Positions 4,890-23,271 of a stretch of 34,185 nt of DNA are shown one piece after another. Numbering within the stretch: position 1 is the stretch's first letter; the number at the start of each line of letters is the position of its first letter. Position numbers and translations under genes: made by a program. The stretch is from a virus (Duplodnaviria; Caudoviricetes), in IMG/VR virus record IMGVR_UViG_3300032332_000488, positions 1 through 34,185 of that record; one strand, given 5' to 3'. The notes below the pieces were generated by a model that was not told the origin of the DNA, searched no databases, and saw nothing but the letters and a program-made list of their open reading frames with translations.

Positions 4890-5891
4890 TTACAGTGAGA
4901 GGTAGTTGTAACCAGACACCACGGTCATCGACTTGGGTTTGACGTTTACCAATTCGGCAATCATCAAAACCGCACCAACATAACCAATCTGCCAGTTCGG
5001 GAGGGTGGATTCAAATCCAGTAAACACAAACGAACCTTGCTCATGGATGTAGAGCGACAGGTAGTTGGTGTTCAGGAAGTAAACCGTACCTTCTGGGCAG
5101 TAGGGGTCAGGATAAATGGGAACACCAGCAACCATCAGGGCACGGAATGCTGCCTGGGGGCCGTTGTTGTCGCCATCAAAGCCGGAGCCTGGAGTAATGA
5201 CATACTGTTCTTGACCAACATAGTCTTGAGCCAGCAAAGTCCAAGTGCCGAAACCGCAAACACCAAAGCTAGGCATTTCAGCGCCGTTTTTCACAGTGCC
5301 GGAAATGTATTGCAGGATGTTTTGACGGGTTGGGTTCACAGAACCCGCAGCGTAGGCTTTGGACTGCCACCAGCTATAAGTCGAGCGGTTGATGTTGCCA
5401 TAAGTGCCAGTGGCGCTAACGGCAGCAGGAAGACCGATAAACTGCTGAGTGTTGGTAGTGTTGTTGTACAACGCCGTTGCCATTGCATCCATCATCACGT
5501 TGGTTGCATCGTTCATACGAGCTTCAATCAACGGAATAATAGCTGCGTCTTGCTGAACAGCGCCTTCCATACCAAGGAACGGCACGGGAGAAATCATCAG
5601 CTTGAGGTCAAACTCAGCGTTGTAAGCACCTTGCTGAACTGACGGCTGGGCAAAAGAGCCAGAGTAGTCAGACCACTGAGCATTCACAAACTGAGCGCCC
5701 TGCACGGGCACGGTTACGGAAGACACACCGCCGGAGGCTTGCTGACTGTTGGCAATCAGAGCCGCCATTAGGGGTGTCGAGTTGTAAAGCTGGACAACCA
5801 GCTTGGGGATAAAGGCTCTACGAGTAACGTAGGTCAGTTCATTGAATTGACTTGACCCTGTTGCCGGTACGATGCCGCCGCCAATAGCCAT
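4890..5891 (-). CDS. Major capsid protein (HK97 fold)
   Basis: 333 aa; perfect SD TAAGGAGG; follows scaffold and portal; GTYGNINR..YSWW, GVPIYPDPYCP and YFLNTNYL motifs seen in podophage capsids. Confidence 0.85.
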   Translation of the reverse strand: MAIGGGIVPATGSSQFNELTYVTRRAFIPKLVVQLYNSTPLMAALIANSQQASGGVSSVTVPVQGAQFVNAQWSDYSGSFAQPSVQQGAYNAEFDLKLMISPVPFLGMEGAVQQDAAIIPLIEARMNDATNVMMDAMATALYNNTTNTQQFIGLPAAVSATGTYGNINRSTYSWWQSKAYAAGSVNPTRQNILQYISGTVKNGAEMPSFGVCGFGTWTLLAQDYVGQEQYVITPGSGFDGDNNGPQAAFRALMVAGVPIYPDPYCPEGTVYFLNTNYLSLYIHEQGSFVFTGFESTLPNWQIGYVGAVLMIAELVNVKPKSMTVVSGYNYLSL

Positions 5892-6662: not shown

Positions 6663-7127
6663 TTACATTGGGGGTGGAGTTGGTGCGCCGCCAGGAGGAG
6701 GCATACCGGGAATCGGCGCTGCTTGCATTGCCTTACCTTCAGGCGTTGCGCCACCTGCCTGGGGTAATGTTTGCAGCATCTGCAAAATTTCAGATTGCTG
6801 GAGTTCGTTTGTTTTGTTTTTCCGTGGCCCCATCAACCCGGTGAGAGAGCGAATAGCTGCCAGAGCTTTAGCGCCTTCTTCAGATTCGGAACCCAAGGCT
6901 GGAAGAGACTGCTCCAGCAAATCCATTGCCATGCCAATGTTAATCATTGCCGCCTCTTTTGAACCCATCTTTGGTTCAGGCGTAGACATGGGGGAAGCCA
7001 TCGGGGGAGTTTCAGCGTCAGAGATTGCGCCGACAGGCATCGCATCAGGTTCGGGGACGGGAGCGGGTGCAGCGGCAGAACGACTGCCTCGCATCAATTC
7101 CATCAACTTATCTGTTGGTACTGCCAT
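6663..7127 (-). CDS. Pro/Met-rich head-module protein
   Basis: Start moved to ATG 7127 (MAVPTDKLM...) behind SD AAGGAG; 154 aa with low-complexity ends. Confidence 0.7.
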   Translation of the reverse strand: MAVPTDKLMELMRGSRSAAAPAPVPEPDAMPVGAISDAETPPMASPMSTPEPKMGSKEAAMINIGMAMDLLEQSLPALGSESEEGAKALAAIRSLTGLMGPRKNKTNELQQSEILQMLQTLPQAGGATPEGKAMQAAPIPGMPPPGGAPTPPPM

Positions 7128-7145
7128 AAAAACTCCTTGTGCGCC

Positions 7146-7175
7146 GTTTGTAACCACTTACAAACCGCTTGTCAA
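7146..7175 (-). promoter_or_regulatory. Sigma70-like promoter for scaffold/capsid genes overlapped by an inverted repeat
   Basis: Minus strand TTGACA(7175-7170)-N17-TACAAA(7152-7147); inverted repeat GTTTGTAA-N4-TTACAAAC at 7146-7165. Confidence 0.5.
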
Positions 7176-7180
7176 TAGGT

Positions 7181-7226
7181 GGGAAGCATTTTATGTCTGC
7201 TTCCCAAAGACAAATCCTTACGGATT
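7181..7226 (-). other. RNA structure B: GNRA hairpin + H-type pseudoknot after micro-ORF B
   Basis: Minus strand AATCC-GTAA-GGATT, then TGTCT-TT-GGGAAGC-AGACA-TAAAAT-GCTTCCC (S1 5 bp, S2 7-8 bp). Confidence 0.7.
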
Positions 7227-7263
7227 ACTTGCGGCCTTTACGACCTTTACGAGCTTTACGCAT
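7225..7263 (-). CDS. 12-aa basic micropeptide B (MRKARKGRKGRK)
   Basis: SD GAGAAGGAG, 6-nt spacer, ATG, 12 codons, TAA; below the ORF-track size cut-off. Confidence 0.7.
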   Translation of the reverse strand: MRKARKGRKGRK

Positions 7264-7285
7264 GATGCGCTCCTTCTCAACAAGC

Positions 7286-7335
7286 GGCCACTTACTTAAA
7301 GGGGAAGCAGCCATACCCTTTTTCCTTGCGGGAAA
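7286..7335 (-). other. RNA structure A: hairpin + H-type pseudoknot after micro-ORF A
   Basis: Minus strand TTTCC-CGCAA-GGAAA, then AAGGG-TAT-GGCTGCTT-C-CCCTT-TAAGT-AAGTGGCC (S1 5 bp, S2 8 bp with two G-U). Confidence 0.65.
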
Positions 7336-7337
7336 TT

Positions 7338-7376
7338 TTACCGACGAGTCTTGCGACCACGCTTTGCTTTGTACAT
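7338..7376 (-). CDS. 12-aa basic micropeptide A (MYKAKRGRKTRR)
   Basis: SD AGGAG, 5-nt spacer, ATG, 12 codons, TAA. Confidence 0.7.
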   Translation of the reverse strand: MYKAKRGRKTRR

Positions 7377-7387
7377 GATAGCTCCTG

Positions 7388-7546
7388 TTAGCTGCGCCGA
7401 GAGTAGTCCCGTTGACTACGCCCAGTGTAGTTTTTAACCCCAGTTTGGCGATATGTCAAGCTGGGGGACGATTCCCCTCTTTTCAGTTGCTCTGTGCTTG
7501 CCCGAGGCTGGTCAGCTTTGGGAGGCACGATTGCTTGTGTAGCCAT
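7388..7546 (-). CDS. 52-aa hypothetical protein with Arg-rich tail
   Basis: TAATG coupling to the portal stop; MATQAIVPPKADQPRASTEQLKRGESSPSLTYRQTGVKNYTGRSQRDYSRRS. Confidence 0.65.
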   Translation of the reverse strand: MATQAIVPPKADQPRASTEQLKRGESSPSLTYRQTGVKNYTGRSQRDYSRRS

Positions 7547-9171
7547 TATCCTACCTGCTTTAAGTCTGGTTTACCCTCTGCCTTTGGAGGAGGTGCAGCA
7601 GGTTGAGCCTGTTGCTTGGCCTCCATCTTCTTCAGTCTGTCTTTGAGCAATTGTTTCATTGGAGGCTCCAGCAAGTCAAGCAAGGATTCCTTGTCAATAA
7701 CCTGGGCCTTGAACAAGTTAAACGCAAGCTGGCGCATGTCTTCCATAAAGATGGGCGAGTTGGAATGGGCATCCACCTTCACCACATAATCTTTTGTGAA
7801 CTGTTCAGCAATGAACTTGTGGTTGTCCATGTCTGTGAAGTGCGTTGCATCGTATGCTTGCATACACTTGAGATACAGAGTTGCCAGTTTCTCCAAGCTG
7901 TCCTCAATGATGAGGGCACGTTTCTTGGCACGGCTAGAACCCAGACGAGCAAGCTGAGATGCGTGACCAGATGAGCGCACACCCGCTTCACCCCGGCCTT
8001 GCAACACAGACACAATGCCGGATGCTTCTTCAAACATTAGGTCAATCTCACCAATCTCTTTGAACAAGTCAGGTGGAATAGTTGGCGCTAACTTTTCTAC
8101 CTTTGCATTAGGCATGTCAGTTGCCAACAAACCACCAGCACGATTGAGAGCAAAATTCTTTTCATCCAAGATGCCCGTAAACCCAATCAGCGCAGTGGGT
8201 GGGCTGACCTGTTTGGAGAGCAAGTCCAGGATTTCAGTCATGCGTTTGTTGCGTAGCTGCTGGAGGAAGACCAAACGCTGAACCTCAGAACCACCCCAGT
8301 AGTAGTCGTACAGTGGGTTGGGGCAAATCTGCACAAATGGCAACTCACCTTTGAGGAACACTTGCTCGCCAGGACGGTCATAAATGATTACGTCTGGGTC
8401 TGCTTTGGTTACAACTTGGTAATCTTTGGAGTCATCACACCACACCCACAGCTCAGTCATCTCCACTGTGTCTTCAGCAACGGTAGCTTTGTAACGGTTC
8501 TGTCCGCCAAGGTCTAAATTAACATTACCGTACATTGTTGGGTTTGACTGACTCAGGATGATGCGCTCTATGCCGTTGGCAACTTCTGTGCGCTCATGCT
8601 GGGTAGAGGTGATGCGTTTCACAATCTCATCCCGGCGGGGATGGCTGTACAGACGGTCATACAACTCAGACTTGGTGATGTAGTACGTCTGGGTGATGGC
8701 CTCTTGCCTGTCGGAATATGGGGTATCTTCCCGCAACACACCCATACAAGCGGGTTCCACCATGTACGGATGGATGCCGTTCTTGATGATGAGCTTGATA
8801 AAGGTTGAGTTGTAGACCAGTGACCAGGTGGTAGCAGCGGAGAACACTTGGTCAGCGTTGCTATTTAGCCACTCATCGTTCAAAGCACGGGTCAGAGCCG
8901 GGACTTTTACCTGCTCTCTGGGGTCTACAGCGGCTCCAACGTCAATAGAAAAGCGGGTAGTTTCCGCTGAGTAGAGGAAACTGGTGAGCTGGTCAATGTG
9001 AGGAAAGATTTTGTTGTAAAGAGCCGGAGCTTCATCCGGCCCGTTACCGAACAAATACCAACTCCGCAGGGAGCCATAGTCTACTTTTCTCTCTTGCTGA
9101 GTGACCTGACACTTGGTGATGAGGTCAAGGTAGAACAATTCTCTATCTACGGGGTTGGTAGGTATCCTCAT
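7546..9171 (-). CDS. Portal protein
   Basis: 541 aa between terminase and scaffold/capsid; LPFVQI.P.P....YWG and SGI..VLQG motifs of P22-like portals. Confidence 0.8.
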   Translation of the reverse strand: MRIPTNPVDRELFYLDLITKCQVTQQERKVDYGSLRSWYLFGNGPDEAPALYNKIFPHIDQLTSFLYSAETTRFSIDVGAAVDPREQVKVPALTRALNDEWLNSNADQVFSAATTWSLVYNSTFIKLIIKNGIHPYMVEPACMGVLREDTPYSDRQEAITQTYYITKSELYDRLYSHPRRDEIVKRITSTQHERTEVANGIERIILSQSNPTMYGNVNLDLGGQNRYKATVAEDTVEMTELWVWCDDSKDYQVVTKADPDVIIYDRPGEQVFLKGELPFVQICPNPLYDYYWGGSEVQRLVFLQQLRNKRMTEILDLLSKQVSPPTALIGFTGILDEKNFALNRAGGLLATDMPNAKVEKLAPTIPPDLFKEIGEIDLMFEEASGIVSVLQGRGEAGVRSSGHASQLARLGSSRAKKRALIIEDSLEKLATLYLKCMQAYDATHFTDMDNHKFIAEQFTKDYVVKVDAHSNSPIFMEDMRQLAFNLFKAQVIDKESLLDLLEPPMKQLLKDRLKKMEAKQQAQPAAPPPKAEGKPDLKQVG

Positions 9172-12972: not shown

Positions 12973-13193
12973 CTTGTCCTCCAGACTCTTACAACAAGCC
13001 CCTCTGTTTTAGCCGTCAACCCTATCCCTAACCGCCTGCTGGCCCTGTAGTTGGCATTCAACACCTTTTGTCTCGCCCCTACAGGCACACAGAAACTGTC
13101 ACCAACATCCATCTCCTCATACGGGTAGGCATACACCACCCGTGCTACAGGTACAGGCCTACCAGTCTCCAATTCAATCGCAGTAATCATCAC
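12969..13193 (-). CDS. Conserved small phage protein (YP.EEM.VGDSF.VP...VRVWR type), probably DNA-binding
   Basis: Motif recognised from small phage proteins; first gene of the minus-strand block. Confidence 0.65.
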   Translation of the reverse strand: MMITAIELETGRPVPVARVVYAYPYEEMDVGDSFCVPVGARQKVLNANYRASRRLGIGLTAKTEGLVVRVWRTR

Positions 13194-13228
13194 CTAACCC
13201 TCTATACAGATAACGCTATATTACAGAC

Positions 13229-13257
13229 AAAAAAAGAGCTACGCAAGTGGTAGCTCT
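13229..13257 (-). terminator. Rho-independent terminator
   Basis: Minus strand AGAGCTAC-7 nt loop-GTAGCTCT followed by a T run. Confidence 0.75.
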
Positions 13258-13349
13258 AAGTTCTAGAAGAACGATGACAAACACGGCTGGGGACTGTTTG
13301 CGGAACTACTGTCTAGACGGTAGCCAATCCCCATGCGTGTTAGCACATG
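13229..13349 (-). ncRNA. Candidate free-standing small RNA with CI/C4-like junction fold
   Basis: AACACG-CA-TGGGGATTG ... CAGTCCCCA-GC-CGTGTT stalk enclosing a hairpin and single-stranded TTCCGCAAA; bounded by an extended -10 and a terminator. Confidence 0.6.
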
Positions 13350-13355
13350 CCAGCT

Positions 13356-13364
13356 ATCCTACCA
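13356..13364 (-). promoter_or_regulatory. Extended -10 promoter for the candidate sRNA
   Basis: Minus strand TG-G-TAGGAT about 14 nt upstream of the stalk. Confidence 0.4.
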
Positions 13365-13370
13365 GAAACC

Positions 13371-13700
13371 ATATTTTTTTTGGGGGGGACGAGATGTGGG
13401 GTGCTCACCTCACCAGACTCCGTAACCCATCGCTCAGGCCACGGCGCTGCTTGTGCTTGTGCTTGTGCGGTAGTTGTCCCGACCCAACCCGATAACGTGC
13501 ATGGTAGCGCACTAGGTGCATGGTACTGGTGCGGTAAAGCATACCCCATGCCAAACCCCATGTAATTCCCGGTGGGCGGTAGGTGATAAACCCTTGTCGA
13601 ATCAATAAACCCGAACTCAGGATACATTACAGAACTATAAGACAATAAATTATAAAGACAATAAACATAGTAGTCTTATATATATTATATACCCTACTGT
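13371..13700. repeat. Divergent intergenic region with short repeats and AT-rich tract (candidate origin or packaging/terminus region)
   Basis: T8G7 at 13374-13388; (GCTTGT)x3 at 13449-13466; GTGCATGGTA x2 (13497, 13516); ACCCCATG x2 (13543, 13555); AAGACAATAAA x2 (13639, 13655); TA tract 13677-13691. Confidence 0.55.
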
Positions 13701-13786
13701 ATACAACGGGTGCATCCACAAAAGTATTCATAGGCAAAACCTAACATCACCTGATTGACGATAGAAATATTTATGAAAAATAGTGC

Positions 13787-13814
13787 TTGACAGGTTAATA
13801 TATACCGGTACACT
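13787..13814 (+). promoter_or_regulatory. Early sigma70-like promoter
   Basis: TTGACA-N16-TACACT with AT-rich upstream sequence, 60 nt before the first plus-strand gene. Confidence 0.65.
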
Positions 13815-13873
13815 AGGTCAAAAAAAGCAAGCGAGACAGTCAGTAACCTAACCTAACCTAATCGGAGCATAGT

Positions 13874-14167
13874 ATGCACACAGTTCACAATCTTCTAAAC
13901 CTCTCCATGAGCGAGGCTTACGACTACACACAGTACAGCGATACCGTTAAGAATGGGGATACTCTCATTGTTTCTGATGGTGTAGGTGTGATGATGAATG
14001 CTTGGCCTGCGATGCTGACAGGCACTTCCGAGGTTTTCCACGCAATTAAGTCTGAATATCTCTCCGAAATTGCAAGCGAGTATCCCGAGGCCTGGAGCGA
14101 TTCACAGGTTGACGTGCACCAGCTGCTGGAGCGAGCTGTAACCTGCGCTGGTGTCATCGACTATTGA
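13874..14167 (+). CDS. Early hypothetical protein
   Basis: 97 aa; SD GGAG preceded by (TAACC)3. Confidence 0.75.
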   Translation: MHTVHNLLNLSMSEAYDYTQYSDTVKNGDTLIVSDGVGVMMNAWPAMLTGTSEVFHAIKSEYLSEIASEYPEAWSDSQVDVHQLLERAVTCAGVIDY

Positions 14168-14242: not shown

Positions 14243-14869
14243 ATGCAATTTTCAGTGCAACGCAAACAGTTGAAGGCCATGTCACGTTTCATGGCAGTGA
14301 AGGACATTCGCTATTACTTGCAAGGCATTCAAGTAGTACAAAACAATAGGGGCACTTACATTGAATCGACAAATGGGCACGTATTGGGCAGACTCTTGAT
14401 TGACGAAACCCCGTGTGCAGTGGCAGCTAGTGTACTTGTGCCTAGTGATGCAGTGAAGGCATTGGGCGCTAGTGGCAGAAAAGGGAATGAAACGCTACAT
14501 TTCACTATTGATGGGGTGAAAATCAGTGTCATTTCCCCTGATGGGTCAAGCATGACGGTTCAAGCGCACCAGGCACGTTATCCCGATTGTGACCGTGTAG
14601 TCCCTGAAATTTACAACGACACACCTAGTGAGTGCAGCACTTACAACCCTGAATACATCATGGCATTTTATGATTGTGCAAAGGACTTGGGTTCAAGTGG
14701 CAAGGGTGTTGCAGTGCAGATAAAGCAAAGGGGCAGTCAGTCCGGCATTGTAATGATTGACAGTGACCCTCTGTTTGTCGGCATCATCATGCCTATGCGT
14801 GAACACAATACAGTAACGATACCGGCATGGTGCACACGTGCTAAGACCCTGGAAACAGTGACGGCATAA
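14243..14869 (+). CDS. DNA polymerase III beta-clamp-like protein (short, 208 aa)
   Basis: KDIRYYLQGI, STNGHVL, RYPDCDRVVP, YNPEYI and GIIMPMR match DnaN signature segments. Confidence 0.8.
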   Translation: MQFSVQRKQLKAMSRFMAVKDIRYYLQGIQVVQNNRGTYIESTNGHVLGRLLIDETPCAVAASVLVPSDAVKALGASGRKGNETLHFTIDGVKISVISPDGSSMTVQAHQARYPDCDRVVPEIYNDTPSECSTYNPEYIMAFYDCAKDLGSSGKGVAVQIKQRGSQSGIVMIDSDPLFVGIIMPMREHNTVTIPAWCTRAKTLETVTA

Positions 14870-17592: not shown

Positions 17593-17808
17593 ATGAAATT
17601 CTGTATTGATTGCAAACATTTTGCGATGGAGAAGCACTCCATCAACCCTGAGGTTGGCAGATGCACCGTCATACGTGCCACAAGCCTTGTAACGGGGCTT
17701 ATCGTGCCTCTTGATACATTGCCCTTCTGCGCCATACAACGCTGCTCTACCAAGCCCTGCGGCCCTGATGCAAATCTGTTTGAAGAGAAGGAGGCCAGCA
17801 ATGTCTGA
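17593..17808 (+). CDS. Cys-rich small protein
   Basis: MKFCIDCKHF...C...C...R....CGPDA.LFE; SD AAGGA. Confidence 0.7.
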   Translation: MKFCIDCKHFAMEKHSINPEVGRCTVIRATSLVTGLIVPLDTLPFCAIQRCSTKPCGPDANLFEEKEASNV

Positions 17809-18694
17809 CTTCAGCCCTGAAACAAGAAACTCAGCATGGTGGTCAGGAGACAGTCGCCGTGCTGCCAGTGGCAAAGCCAACGAGGTCATACTCACAAAGC
17901 AGGGCAAGATGGAGATTCCAGACCTGTCCGGCATAGAAGCTGTGCAGATGGGACACGTGATGGAGCCTGTCATCGCAAGCCTAGCCAGCGAGAAACTGGG
18001 TGTGCGGCTGGAGAAGATTGAGGAAGCTCTCACGCACCCTAAACATCCTTGGCTGAAATCACACTTTGACTACCACGGGAAACTCAATGGCGAAACTATC
18101 TTGGTTGAGTGTAAAAATTACAACGCTGCGGTTAGAAATAAGTTTGATGAAAGCGGCCTCATCCCTGCTGCTGACATGGCTCAGATTGTCCACGAAGCGG
18201 CGGTATACGGCGTACGGAAAATTTATCTGGCTGTGCTATTTGGTGGTCAAGAGTTTGTCCTTATTCCGTTTGAAATCACTGACGAGCAAAAAGAAGAACT
18301 TATCAAGCAGATGGCGGTCTACTGGGGGCACTGCCAAGCAGGAACTCAGCTACCGCCAGAGACTCCTGAACAGGCAAGACTGATATACCCCACAGGGCTG
18401 GACAACACCAAGATGGCCTCCAGGAGCGTAGAAGAGGCTTGCCGCACCCTTGCTATTGTCAAGGGTCAGATAAAGGCTCTAGAGGCCCAGGAAGCGGCTC
18501 TGATGACCCTTGTGCAAGGTTACATGGGGGAATGCAACCAACTCGCTACTTTTGACGGCTCTGTGCTGGCAACCTGGAAGAACGCTAAACACAGTGAGAA
18601 GTTTGACAGCAAGCTGTTTCAGTCTGCCATGCCGGATGTGTACGAGAAGTTTGTGGTCAACGTGCCGGGTTCACGGAGGTTCTTAGTCAAATGA
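17801..18694 (+). CDS. YqaJ-like (lambda-exonuclease family) nuclease
   Basis: GHVMEPVI, HPWLKSHFD, LVECKN and Q..H motifs; start at ATG 17801 behind AAGGAGG. Confidence 0.85.
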   Translation: MSDFSPETRNSAWWSGDSRRAASGKANEVILTKQGKMEIPDLSGIEAVQMGHVMEPVIASLASEKLGVRLEKIEEALTHPKHPWLKSHFDYHGKLNGETILVECKNYNAAVRNKFDESGLIPAADMAQIVHEAAVYGVRKIYLAVLFGGQEFVLIPFEITDEQKEELIKQMAVYWGHCQAGTQLPPETPEQARLIYPTGLDNTKMASRSVEEACRTLAIVKGQIKALEAQEAALMTLVQGYMGECNQLATFDGSVLATWKNAKHSEKFDSKLFQSAMPDVYEKFVVNVPGSRRFLVK

Positions 18695-18888
18695 AAGCCT
18701 ATCCCTTCATTCACAAGCACCCCACCACTGGCAACACCACGATGGCAGAGGGCGCTGACTTGCGTGACATATTTGCTGGTCTTGCCATGCAAAAACTTAT
18801 GGGGTCAGCCGATGTTGATGACTGCTGTAAGTCTGCTTTTATGTGGGCAGACGCAATGATGAAGGCCAGGGAGGTCAAGCATGACTAA
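18691..18888 (+). CDS. Conserved small phage protein (LRD.FAG.AMQ...ADAMM.AR type)
   Basis: Recognisable motif; ATGA overlap. Confidence 0.75.
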   Translation: MKAYPFIHKHPTTGNTTMAEGADLRDIFAGLAMQKLMGSADVDDCCKSAFMWADAMMKAREVKHD

Positions 18889-18961
18889 CTGGAGCATCTA
18901 CGTCATGGCCTTTTGTTCCCTGATTGAACTAACCATAACTGTATTGGAAAAACTACTATGA
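18881..18961 (+). CDS. 26-aa hydrophobic peptide
   Basis: SD GGAGG; MTNWSIYVMAFCSLIELTITVLEKLL; stop overlaps the HNH start (ATGA). Confidence 0.5.
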   Translation: MTNWSIYVMAFCSLIELTITVLEKLL

Positions 18962-19377
18962 AAGATATTGTTGGATATGAAGGGCTGTACGCAGTCACTG
19001 AAGATGGGATGGTGTGGGCTTACCCGAATAGGATTCACAAAGGAAAATTCCTAAAACCGTCTTTGAAAAAAGGTTATCCGTTTGTTTGTTTGTGTAAGGG
19101 TTCAGAGATAAAGCAATTTTCGATTCACCGTTTGGTTGCCGAAGCCTACTTGCCTAATTTTGACTCTTTGCCTCAAGTCAATCACATTGATAGCAACAAA
19201 GAAAACAACCATGTTTCTAACCTTGAATGGTGTAGCGCCAGCCAAAACAAAAAACATTCTTGGGATTCTGGAACATCATTTGTTACCCCAGCAAAAAGAG
19301 AGGCATCTCGCCGTAACGCTTACATAGCACACAACACCTGGAGAAATAAACATGAGCAACATCGTAGCGGTATCTGA
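18958..19377 (+). CDS. HNH homing endonuclease (NUMOD4-like N-terminus)
   Basis: KDIVGYEGLYAV, HRLVAEAY, VNHIDSNKENNHVSNLEW. Confidence 0.9.
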   Translation: MKDIVGYEGLYAVTEDGMVWAYPNRIHKGKFLKPSLKKGYPFVCLCKGSEIKQFSIHRLVAEAYLPNFDSLPQVNHIDSNKENNHVSNLEWCSASQNKKHSWDSGTSFVTPAKREASRRNAYIAHNTWRNKHEQHRSGI

Positions 19378-20206
19378 TATGCAGGTGATGGCAGAGTCCA
19401 TCGTTAAATCAAACTTCTATGGTTTCAAAACCAAAGAGCAAGTCATGGCTGTCATGCTTGTCGCACAAGCAGAAGGCAAACATCCTGCTACTGTTGTGCA
19501 AGAGTACGACATTATTCAGGGCAGACCAGCGTTGAAATCACAGGCTTTGCTTGCAAGATTTCAAATGGCTGGTGGCAAAGTGGAATGGCAAGAAGTATCT
19601 GCCAAGCGATGCTGCGGCACTTTTTCACATCCTCTGGGCGGCAGTCTCACGATTGAGTGGACGATTGAAATGGCAAGGCAAGCTGGTCTTGTTCGGGATA
19701 ATTCTGGATGGACTAAGTTTCCTGAAGACATGCTCTCTGCCAGGGTCATCAGTCGTGCTGTCCGCAAGGTTTACCCTGGTTGCATCTTGGGTCACTACGC
19801 AGTAGAAGAGGTCATGGATTTTGAGCCTCGCAAACCATTAAACATGGGGCCTGTAGAGCGAGTGGAAGAAGTGCAGGCAGAAGAAGTTGTGGCAGATGGG
19901 GCATATCACCTCTTCATTCCAGGCAACGACAAGCCGTATGCCAGCTACCACACCACAGACGAATGGATAGAGGGTTACTGCTTGATGGTTAACCGCATCT
20001 CTGTGTCACCTAAATTCTCTGATGCTGAGAAGACTGAGAAGCTGGACTTGTTGAAGCAGTCAAACTTACCCATCACCGCTGAGTTTGACGCATACACAAA
20101 CATCAAGCTGAAAGGCGAGATTGTCAAAGCTGGTGGGAGCATCACTCCCCCAAAGCCAGAACCCCTGCCACCAACAGGTTCGGAACTCAACGAGCCAATA
20201 TTTTGA
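19352..20206 (+). CDS. RecT/Bet-like single-strand annealing protein
   Basis: IIQGRPAL, W.K.PEDML.AR.ISRAVR..YP; partner of the YqaJ nuclease. Confidence 0.75.
   Translation: MSNIVAVSDMQVMAESIVKSNFYGFKTKEQVMAVMLVAQAEGKHPATVVQEYDIIQGRPALKSQALLARFQMAGGKVEWQEVSAKRCCGTFSHPLGGSLTIEWTIEMARQAGLVRDNSGWTKFPEDMLSARVISRAVRKVYPGCILGHYAVEEVMDFEPRKPLNMGPVERVEEVQAEEVVADGAYHLFIPGNDKPYASYHTTDEWIEGYCLMVNRISVSPKFSDAEKTEKLDLLKQSNLPITAEFDAYTNIKLKGEIVKAGGSITPPKPEPLPPTGSELNEPIF
20135..20181 (+). promoter_or_regulatory. Candidate -1 programmed ribosomal frameshift signal
   Basis: Internal SD-like GGGAG (20135-20139), in-frame heptamer C CCA AAG (20149-20155), 3' stem-loop 20159-20181. Confidence 0.55.
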
Positions 20207-22484: not shown

Positions 22485-22620
22485 CAGTCTCAGCAGAGCG
22501 CCGGAAGGCTTCCTTGGTGGGATAGCCTTTCTGCCCTCTCTTCTTTGCTGGCAGACCAGCAGCCCTGCGCCTATTGATGTTGAAGTACAAGCCACGTTTG
22601 GCTTTAGGTGTGTATGCCAT
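22474..22620 (-). CDS. 48-aa highly basic protein
   Basis: MAYTPKAKRGLYFNINRRRAAGLPAKKRGQKGYPTKEAFRRSAETARR; TAATG coupling; last gene of the minus block. Confidence 0.7.
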   Translation of the reverse strand: MAYTPKAKRGLYFNINRRRAAGLPAKKRGQKGYPTKEAFRRSAETARR

Positions 22621-22850
22621 TATCTGCATCCCCAGCGTTTACGAGCTGCTTTACCACGCTCACCTGTCCAGCTCTTGCTTCTGGCGCAGAACGACTTGTG
22701 ACGTGGGCCTGATTTGGTGGGAGCCTTCAGGTTGCTACCTGTGGCTCTGTTGGCCTTGGCTCTGCCTTTAGCAGTCAGGCCACCACCCTTTTTGACAGAC
22801 AGCTTCTCGCCTCTGCCAACACTTAAATTAGGAAACTTCTTTTTAGGCAT
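22620..22850 (-). CDS. Basic protein (GGLTAKGR...SFCAR...RWGC, DUF6321-like)
   Basis: Motif recognised from phage proteins; start at ATG 22850. Confidence 0.7.
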   Translation of the reverse strand: MPKKKFPNLSVGRGEKLSVKKGGGLTAKGRAKANRATGSNLKAPTKSGPRHKSFCARSKSWTGERGKAARKRWGCR

Positions 22851-23271
22851 AAACCCTAGTCCCTTCTTTGTCAATGATGAGAGCTTGCAGTCTGGGCTTG
22901 TCAGCAGTGTGGTTGGGAATGCTCACATGCGTCCACCTGTCAAACTCACGTATAACTTGGTCATGGCCTAAGTTAGCGGCAATGATGGCCTTCACCACTT
23001 CATCTGGGGTCATGCCGGGTACACGTATGTCGGCAGCGCAACCTGTGCGGTGCTGGCTTGTGTCTTTGCTGCCTACCGCATCGTTAACCGCTTTAGAGCG
23101 GAAAGCACTGTTGACCATGATTGGCTTGTTACCAAGTACAGTTTTGACTGCCTCCAAGAACTCAGCCAATCGTTTAAGGTTGGCATATTCGTCCATGTTG
23201 GGCGTGTTGTCCAGAGTACGGTGGTCTGTGTGCGTCAGCTCTTCCAGGGTGAAATGTTCACTGAGGTTCAT
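22843..23271 (-). CDS. Endolysin, peptidase M15 family
   Basis: LSEHFTLEE, SAFRS..VN..VG, SQH..G.AAD and W.HVS zinc-binding pattern. Confidence 0.9.
   Translation of the reverse strand: MNLSEHFTLEELTHTDHRTLDNTPNMDEYANLKRLAEFLEAVKTVLGNKPIMVNSAFRSKAVNDAVGSKDTSQHRTGCAADIRVPGMTPDEVVKAIIAANLGHDQVIREFDRWTHVSIPNHTADKPRLQALIIDKEGTRVYA

Follow-up and report, generated by a model that had tools for sequence, protein, structure and literature searches.

A tailed-phage genome encodes two arginine- and lysine-rich micro-ORFs and two predicted H-type pseudoknots between its portal and capsid genes. The window, meaning the whole stretch of DNA analysed here, is a virus record of 34,185 bases, complete and bounded by direct terminal repeats. 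Comparison with relatives shows conserved coding and position of the micro-ORFs, covarying pseudoknots, a front pseudoknot (PK-A) tied to the start downstream of it, and a rear pseudoknot (PK-B) in a slot that a sister clade fills with a terminator. We propose that the polycationic peptides of these micro-genes would neutralise DNA in packaging, that the front pseudoknot would be a feedback operator and that the rear one would guard the 3' end. We rate this combined reading as close to an even call, slightly on the doubtful side.

The micro-ORF region and its setting

The micro-ORFs lie in a minus-strand head module ordered terminase, portal, p52, micro-ORF region, p154, 60-aa ORF, 176-aa ORF and major capsid (Table 1). 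The original prediction, made from the letters of the window, described two tandem units of SD, ORF, hairpin and pseudoknot, and all of these parts are present on the minus strand at the positions it gave. Both ORFs have 12 codons including the ATG, not an ATG plus 12 codons as predicted; the fixed length does not extend to relatives, whose peptides run from 9 to 23 aa. The predicted location between portal and scaffold/capsid genes needs small corrections. On the portal side p52 intervenes. On the other side the next gene is p154, which has no match in Pfam, PHROG or NCBIfam, and the viral clusters that it matched are unnamed ones only. The 176-aa ORF ahead of the capsid gene is a better scaffold candidate.

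Table 1. Features of the micro-ORF region and neighbouring head genes, in positions of the window
Feature	Position	Strand	Details
Portal protein gene (context)	7546..9171	-	PF23899 SU10_portal, E 8e-9; phrog_1216 portal
p52	7388..7546	-	conserved 52-aa ORF, Arg-rich C-terminus; between portal and micro-ORF A; no family match
Predicted internal promoter P1, inside p52 (inferred)	7431..7459	-	-35 7459-7454, 17 nt, -10-like 7436-7431
SD + micro-ORF A	SD 7386-7382; ORF 7376-7338	-	MYKAKRGRKTRR
Hairpin 3' of stop A	7321..7335	-	
PK-A, predicted H-type pseudoknot	7286..7320	-	S1 7320-7316/7303-7299; S2 7312-7305/7293-7286
SD + micro-ORF B	SD 7275-7270; ORF 7263-7225	-	MRKARKGRKGRK
Hairpin overlapping stop B	7213..7226	-	
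PK-B, predicted H-type pseudoknot, A-rich last loop	7181..7212	-	S1 7212-7208/7198-7194; S2 7205-7199/7187-7181
Predicted promoter P2, capsid operon (inferred)	7147..7175	-	-35 7175-7170, 17 nt, -10-like 7152-7147
p154	6663..7127	-	154-aa Pro/Met-rich ORF, ATG 7127; conserved neighbour downstream of micro-ORFs
Major capsid protein gene (context)	4890..5891	-	phrog_9953, E 9e-34

The portal family comprises at least 2762 proteins at E up to 1e-10, in 709 clusters at 50% identity. A search of 50,697 phage records found no cultured close relative and two uncultured ones. The PK-A model had zero matches in 150 other genomes of one host-bin family, and the portal profile matched 2 of 401 genomes of one order. 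Gene callers miss the micro-ORFs, as had been anticipated: both annotated relatives place hypothetical ORFs on the opposite strand there. The capsid protein has only 12 Arg and Lys in 333 residues, around half the proportion seen in three cultured distant relatives. Across the family these residues make up 3.6-5% of capsid proteins versus 8-9% in three cultured distant phages, and net charge is alike.

Other parts of the genome hold features of their own. The late operon closes with an M15 peptidase endolysin gene followed by one for a very basic 84-aa protein, DUF6321 (22620-22874, minus strand). An ORF at 14243-14869 (plus strand), near YqaJ and RecT-like genes (17798-20206), matches a DNA polymerase III beta clamp domain weakly (E 7e-4, below the cut-off). 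Between divergent gene blocks, the 680 bases of 13193-13874 combine stretches rich in A+T, short repeats and hairpins with a promoter-like site at 13787 (plus strand), and are a candidate origin or control region. The head module of relatives also varies. Insertions of 150-480 bases between the p60, p176 and capsid genes displace p176 or the capsid gene downstream in L100, L164, L148, L162, L127 and L161. Extra genes separate the micro-ORFs from p154 in L095 (184 and 135 aa) and L111, and L081 (5620-5720) and L082 have an additional basic ORF of ~32 aa between portal and p52.

Comparative evidence for micro-genes

Micro-ORFs recur in close and distant relatives. Portal similarity picked out 80 close-relative loci; every one of the 68 that extend to p154 has at least one micro-ORF, as do all three genome-bin loci. 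In a wider set, 53 of 63 loci have them, three have a Lys/Met/Pro-rich type and seven have none, the absences in L215 and L241 being judged via near twins. Arg/Lys peptides are missing in these seven related loci and are therefore not universally required. A search for the bare pattern SD-ATG-..KGRKxR[KR]-stop found 120 viral loci, of which all but one (119) lie in this head module, at portal identities down to 29%. To avoid the bias of the pattern, we picked distant loci by capsid proteins instead, using two that are 40% and 32% identical to that of the window. An Arg/Lys micro-ORF lies at most 2.2 kb upstream of the capsid gene in 60 of these 67 loci, with 71 matches in 147 kb of capsid-upstream sequence versus 7 in 959 kb elsewhere. 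A looser peptide pattern, run on general metagenomes, gave noise (12 of 120 in-frame, none near head genes). No free-standing micro-ORF lies between portal and capsid in Mx8, Mx9, BUCT555 or ppBjS10J-1, four cultured phages whose capsid similarity is distant.

The micro-ORFs bear the marks of protein-level selection. The 251 loci with p154 yield 144 distinct peptides from 257 DNA sequences, 133 of the peptides being 10-14 aa long, and a single acidic residue occurs among 1719. The Arg/Lys share of 62% is partly built in, because the peptide filter required at least 42% Arg+Lys; the synonymous pattern and the position of the ORFs are independent of that filter. Across 31 twelve-mers, codon differences are synonymous in 1318 cases and non-synonymous in 628, and third positions vary three times more. 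This synonymous excess among relatives bears out the view that the ORFs are coding. Arg codons are 85% CGY, compared with 83% in the capsid gene and 35% in the terminase. Judged by these comparisons, the micro-ORFs are genes.

Copy number and peptide type vary among loci. Each locus has one to three micro-ORFs; L115 and L119 have a third Arg/Lys copy. The subgroup with up to three, represented by the linkers of L093, L099, L100, L113, L129, L131, L166, L220, L249, L251 and L270 and also by L095, has no PK-A. In MFE folds the middle ORF sits in a loop closed by its two flanks, G-rich upstream and a pyrimidine tract downstream; the tract is also anti-SD-like and adjoins the SD of the last ORF. 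Sister-clade micro-ORFs that follow p52 (L233, L226, L216, L218, L268) encode Lys/Met/Pro-rich peptides of 18-25 aa, and L242 and L243 encode hybrids of the two types. The portal gene of L118/L411 is turned round with respect to the capsid operon, and promoter, leader and micro-ORF remain with p154 and the capsid gene.

Where the peptides would act is a matter of weighing these facts. They might work in the infected cell, on the host nucleoid, ribosomes, RNA or replicating phage DNA, with the pseudoknots limiting a toxic product. Polycationic 12-mers would be expected to bind any nucleic acid, a promoter and terminator of their own partly uncouple them from the capsid genes, some relatives do without them, and the portions of the literature consulted give little precedent for basic proteins in tailed-phage heads. 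Against this stand a codon use like that of the capsid gene and a fixed place before p154 and the capsid operon, held at 29% portal identity and even with the portal inverted. We regard an intracellular role as rather unlikely.

Fixed synonymous codons suggest promoter P1 within p52. Among relatives with Leu-Thr at this site, Leu is TTG in 62 of 63 and Thr is ACA in 54 of 63, counts that kinship inflates; four late genes use TTG in 35 of 108 and ACA in 12 of 71 cases. Several contigs from seven RNA runs span the micro-ORFs and one starts at 7427, near the predicted P1 start, but such contigs show neither strand, level nor ends, may be DNA, and carry no evidential weight.

PK-A is a leader of the downstream micro-ORF

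PK-A is conserved in pairing and in sequence. We aligned 69 rows by sequence alone, the window plus 68 of 87 non-redundant leaders; the 19 leaders lacking the core belong to the three-ORF subgroup, the sister clade and distant loci. Pairing holds in 88.7% of cells and double changes occur at 12 of 14 pairs, counts again inflated by kinship. None of 500 shuffles scored as high, slid controls were all lower, and each helix shows several independent pair types. At the 2x2 centre of S2, relatives show either tandem wobbles or pyrimidine mismatches. PK-A conserves sequence beyond what pairing needs, this non-canonical centre included, and PK-B does not. A finder allowing mismatches was uninformative for PK-A, since 355 of 684 shuffles pass, and the first threshold of the pseudoknot finder was too lax (274 of 685 shuffles).

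Support for structure is comparative, because the window stretch itself folds only modestly better than its shuffles (z -1.7, nested model). Covariation across relatives in both PK-A and PK-B upholds the structural selection that the original prediction had read from matched geometry. For the hairpin after stop A, the 30-nt stretch at the stop folds at -6.7 versus -3.3 kcal/mol when shuffled, and better than shuffles in 228 of 273 cases. Two further candidates were set aside. A long helix round micro-ORF B, present in the MFE fold of the window, is not kept in relatives by eye. Among 133 relatives with the core, just 21 leave open a 29-aa in-frame extension of micro-ORF B starting in PK-A.

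PK-A belongs to the gene downstream of it, because every copy precedes a micro-ORF and some have no micro-ORF A. In all 173 unique matches whose next gene is readable, a micro-ORF follows, with one PK-A per locus, and in 136 of 158 cases 16-23 nt separate the end of the pseudoknot from the following start. By inspection, micro-ORF A is missing in front of PK-A in 16 of the 173, and 14 of these follow p52. The other two are L111 (51% identity, model E 4.5e-5), where PK-A comes after the portal, and L211, where no ORF precedes PK-A and it lies in a leader after a promoter-like site. The spacing and occurrence of PK-A define a conserved cassette of PK-A, SD, micro-ORF B, hairpin and PK-B, with micro-ORF A optional. 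Two equivalent ORF-hairpin-pseudoknot modules, as first described, are thus not what the family contains: PK-A is tied to the downstream start and persists without micro-ORF A, and some micro-ORFs have no pseudoknot behind them (L213, L279 and the distant clades). Micro-ORF A of the window has no pseudoknot in front. In the clade of the window, the PK-A loop pairs with the strand just upstream of the SD (0 of 10000 permutations); pairing with the SD or ribosome-binding site was considered and rejected, with no selected pairing found (p 0.77).

The variation in spacing also bears on whether the pseudoknots are released as small RNAs mimicking a type III (ToxI-like) antitoxin, or stimulate read-through or frameshifting. 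Their compact H-type geometry 3' of a stop and their tandem arrangement invite the idea. A read-through or frameshift pseudoknot calls for a fixed short spacer and a conserved extension frame. Here S1 begins 14-34 nt after the stop in PK-A and about 10-52 nt after it in PK-B, and spacer frames divide 47/37/50; these variable spacers and frames exclude recoding. The antitoxin half of the idea is countered by the single PK-A per locus, the absence of near-identical repeats and the negative Rfam search. We give the proposal as a whole very little credence.

PK-B occupies a terminator slot ahead of predicted promoter P2

PK-B is too poorly conserved to align, so we defined stem 2 first and then tested the pairing of stem 1. 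Of 64 rows, 4 have no stem 2. In the remaining 60, stem 1 pairs with its own loop in 45, versus 1007 of 3540 swapped loops, a result reached by 0 of 10000 permutations. A finder that allowed mismatches detected PK-B in 122 of 141 sequences, compared with 111 of 564 when shuffled and 42 of 141 when reverse-complemented. Stem-1 types are scattered across a quick portal tree.

PK-B sits immediately before a promoter-like sequence. It ends 0-7 nt upstream of a TTGAC in 117 of 122 cases, and 159 of 178 unique tails have TTGACW downstream of their last micro-ORF. The predicted promoter at this site, P2, was not picked by a strict consensus promoter scan. An 8-bp palindrome (7169-7144, minus strand) overlaps the P2 spacer and -10 region and is kept in many close relatives; it is possibly an operator for a late regulator.

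The slot of PK-B holds an intrinsic terminator, a GC hairpin with a U tract, in a sister clade that branches outside the 96-row pseudoknot clade in a quick tree. PK-B itself does not have the terminator form of hairpin then U tract, which the sister-clade element does. The shared slot agrees with the 3'-end role first suggested for the fold. L213, L238 and L279 have neither PK-B nor a terminator.

Distant-clade leaders are predicted to pair with the ribosome-binding site

The distant clade also has a leader before its micro-ORF. A free-standing promoter-like site has a TTG-type -35 in 58 of 68 loci, and of 31 non-redundant leaders 21 have TAnnnT at a spacing of 18 nt; it is followed by a hairpin with a 10-15-nt loop, SD, ORF and usually a strong hairpin. 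Terminator-like signals come after the micro-ORF in 13 of 31, versus 6 of 93 shuffles. The 3' end of the loop is complementary to SD and spacer, at -7.5 kcal/mol for its own site, -6.0 for swapped and -5.6 for shuffled loops. No permutation of 10000 reaches this pairing, in a set that still includes two chance ORFs and a few mis-picked hairpins. The pairing is largely a shared CUC/GAG core, and covariation beyond it is modest (p 0.0006 in 23 rows with 8 dropped; p 0.03 in 17 rows with near twins collapsed). Read from sequence, the distant leader is laid out as a translational OFF switch.

The two kinds of leader may be of common descent. Their position, stem-1 polarity and loop size agree, and a GGCU or GCUC motif is common to some. 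The PK-A model did not detect the distant leaders (best E 1). Rfam gave no hit at gathering score in 8 distant loci; in two distant leaders it gave sub-threshold hairpin matches only, and riboswitch models had no match.

The distant order of promoter, leader, Arg/Lys ORF, strong hairpin and capsid operon, with no second promoter seen, resembles that of a leader peptide. Ribosome speed on the Arg/Lys codons would sense charged tRNA and set read-through into the capsid operon, by attenuation or translational coupling, the peptide being a by-product. The overlap of hairpins with the stop codon also suits this account. In the clade of the window, however, P2 follows PK-B (159 of 178); every one of the one to three copies has an SD of its own; and the Gly-Arg-Lys pattern is conserved at peptide level. 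L440, L469, L470 and L478 moreover have no hairpin between micro-ORF and p154. Leader-peptide control is thus quite improbable in our view.

The pairing with the SD bears on another account, in which both pseudoknots are passive stability elements of a long-lived mini-mRNA without feedback. PK-B would block 3'-5' decay, PK-A would shield micro-ORF B on its 5' side or the preceding ORF at its 3' end, and the peptides might still be packaged. PK-A nearly always stands behind a stop codon and hairpin, the clade of the window shows no SD pairing, and tight spacing to the next start or promoter could reflect genome compaction. A passive shield does not explain why PK-A, unlike PK-B, keeps sequence beyond pairing needs, including the 2x2 centre, or why L211 has PK-A without a preceding ORF; and distant leaders that pair with the SD would lower output rather than raise it. 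We consider purely passive pseudoknots unlikely.

A model for self-limiting synthesis of packaging peptides

Feedback control of DNA-neutralising peptides, our preferred model, would proceed as follows. A late promoter, P1 or the free-standing one of the distant clade, would make a short transcript. A strong SD and optimal codons would then yield thousands of +7/+8 peptides; by calculation, ~2100 peptides would cover a quarter of the phosphates. The peptides would bind phage DNA and be packaged with it. Their charge, the capsid-like codons and the pre-capsid place across distant clades are most simply explained by genome binding during packaging. Protein J of phiX174 and VII/Mu of adenovirus are precedents for such binding.

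Surplus peptide would shut off its own synthesis. It would bind and stabilise the leader pseudoknot, as gp32 does in T4. In the distant clade this predicted structure takes in the SD by base pairing, and in the clade of the window it stops a few bases short of the SD. Free polycation would be expected to be harmful, which would give the leader a reason to close once peptide exceeds the DNA sink. At the other end, PK-B would halt 3'-5' exonucleases just before P2, giving the short transcript a stable 3' end while still allowing read-through.

In its boldest form, the model holds that widespread tailed dsDNA phages encode their own polyamine as peptides of 10-15 residues, thousands of copies per head, dosed by a peptide-sensing H-type pseudoknot that would shut over the SD as free Arg/Lys peptide builds up; we put this forward tentatively and with more doubt than belief. 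Neutralisation of packed DNA in tailed phages is usually credited to metal ions and host polyamines. The consulted part of PMC3281028 holds that basic proteins are not known to contribute much to it for phage dsDNA and that dense packing leaves scant room. This view, the loss of the peptides in some relatives and the want of a front pseudoknot for micro-ORF A all count against the model. If the model is true, a protamine-like micro-gene in the head module of a large portal family would be a counter-example to what that part of PMC3281028 says.

Micro-genes of such kind would be missed by gene callers and trypsin proteomics alike. Our literature search found no description of the micro-genes or pseudoknots; anonymous entries in catalogues of small phage genes or structured RNAs are possible. 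The portions consulted of PMC10690425, PMC5737381, PMC3185693 and bioRxiv 10.64898/2026.09.22.753630 make no mention of the feature. Three of the six supplementary files of PMC10690425 have no match, and the rest may hold anonymous leader or peptide entries. The leader is an element of 50-90 nt whose switch behaviour is testable without the phage, in E. coli and in vitro.

Comparison with known systems

The resemblances to tmRNA and to ToxI antitoxins first seen in the region are those of compact pseudoknots and of a short ORF followed by structure, and neither goes deeper. ARAGORN found 0 genes and Rfam had no match, which removes tmRNA; ToxI differs in its tandem near-identical repeats, and we recognised no Rfam match and no toxin gene in the window. 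The expectation that no Rfam model covers the module was correct, as neither pseudoknot was matched. The Rfam search of the window returned one sub-threshold isrG match elsewhere at E up to 1, and a search of 7100-7560 returned two chance matches at E up to 10.

PK-B invites comparison with elements that end or protect transcripts. Intercistronic 3' stabilising hairpins are known, for example in the Rhodobacter puf operon. Like these and like terminators, PK-B is placed after the last stop codon and ahead of the following promoter; unlike them, it is a pseudoknot without a U tract.

The peptides have the marks of basic core proteins: they are small and strongly basic, contain almost no acidic residues and are encoded in a virion module. 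Adenovirus VII and Mu, according to the part of PMC4189039 consulted, are basic core proteins bound to the genome. As far as the consulted portions of the sources describe them, phiX174 J, adenovirus VII/Mu and baculovirus P6.9 are likewise very small, Arg/Lys-rich, Gly-containing products of virion genes. They belong, in the same portions, to ssDNA phages or eukaryotic viruses, whereas the micro-ORF peptides are shorter and belong to a dsDNA tailed phage. They also differ in that the micro-ORFs are one to three separate genes with RNA control elements. Three members of 21-23 aa had no match in PHROGs or NCBIfam at E up to 1; the 12-mers are too short to scan.

The distant leaders resemble riboswitches in topology. 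SAM-II is a translational riboswitch of the same H-type, SD-pairing topology. The consulted parts of PMC7641330 describe the S2 of preQ1-I as an SD:anti-SD helix, and distant leaders share with preQ1-I and guanidine-III (PMC7641330; bioRxiv 10.1101/2025.04.15.648854, as far as the consulted parts show) the arrangement of promoter, S1 hairpin and SD-pairing loop as S2. An S2 made of loop and SD is predicted in the distant clade and not in the clade of the window. Unlike preQ1-I, SAM-II and guanidine-III, the leaders match no ligand-pocket Rfam model and precede no metabolic gene.

A functional parallel proposed here, gene 32 of T4/T2, has an autoregulatory pseudoknot through which gp32 shuts off its own synthesis, in the account given by the consulted part of PMC3014915. 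That part of the 2010 review calls gene 32 perhaps the sole phage case of pseudoknot autoregulation. Like gene 32 as described there, these phage micro-genes carry an H-type pseudoknot in their 5' leader and encode a product expected to bind nucleic acid and to be titrated by DNA. Unlike gene 32, the gene controlled is a micro-ORF of 10-23 codons and not gp32/SSB. The gene 32 pseudoknot lies, in the same source portion, ~67 nt upstream of an unstructured A+U tract, while the one here stands 16-23 nt before the start or is paired with the SD. If the model is true, this would be a second phage case of pseudoknot autoregulation and perhaps a naturally occurring RNA that senses an arginine-rich peptide. 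The parts work like the gene 32 operator, SD-sequestering riboswitches and viral protamines, yet belong to none of them.
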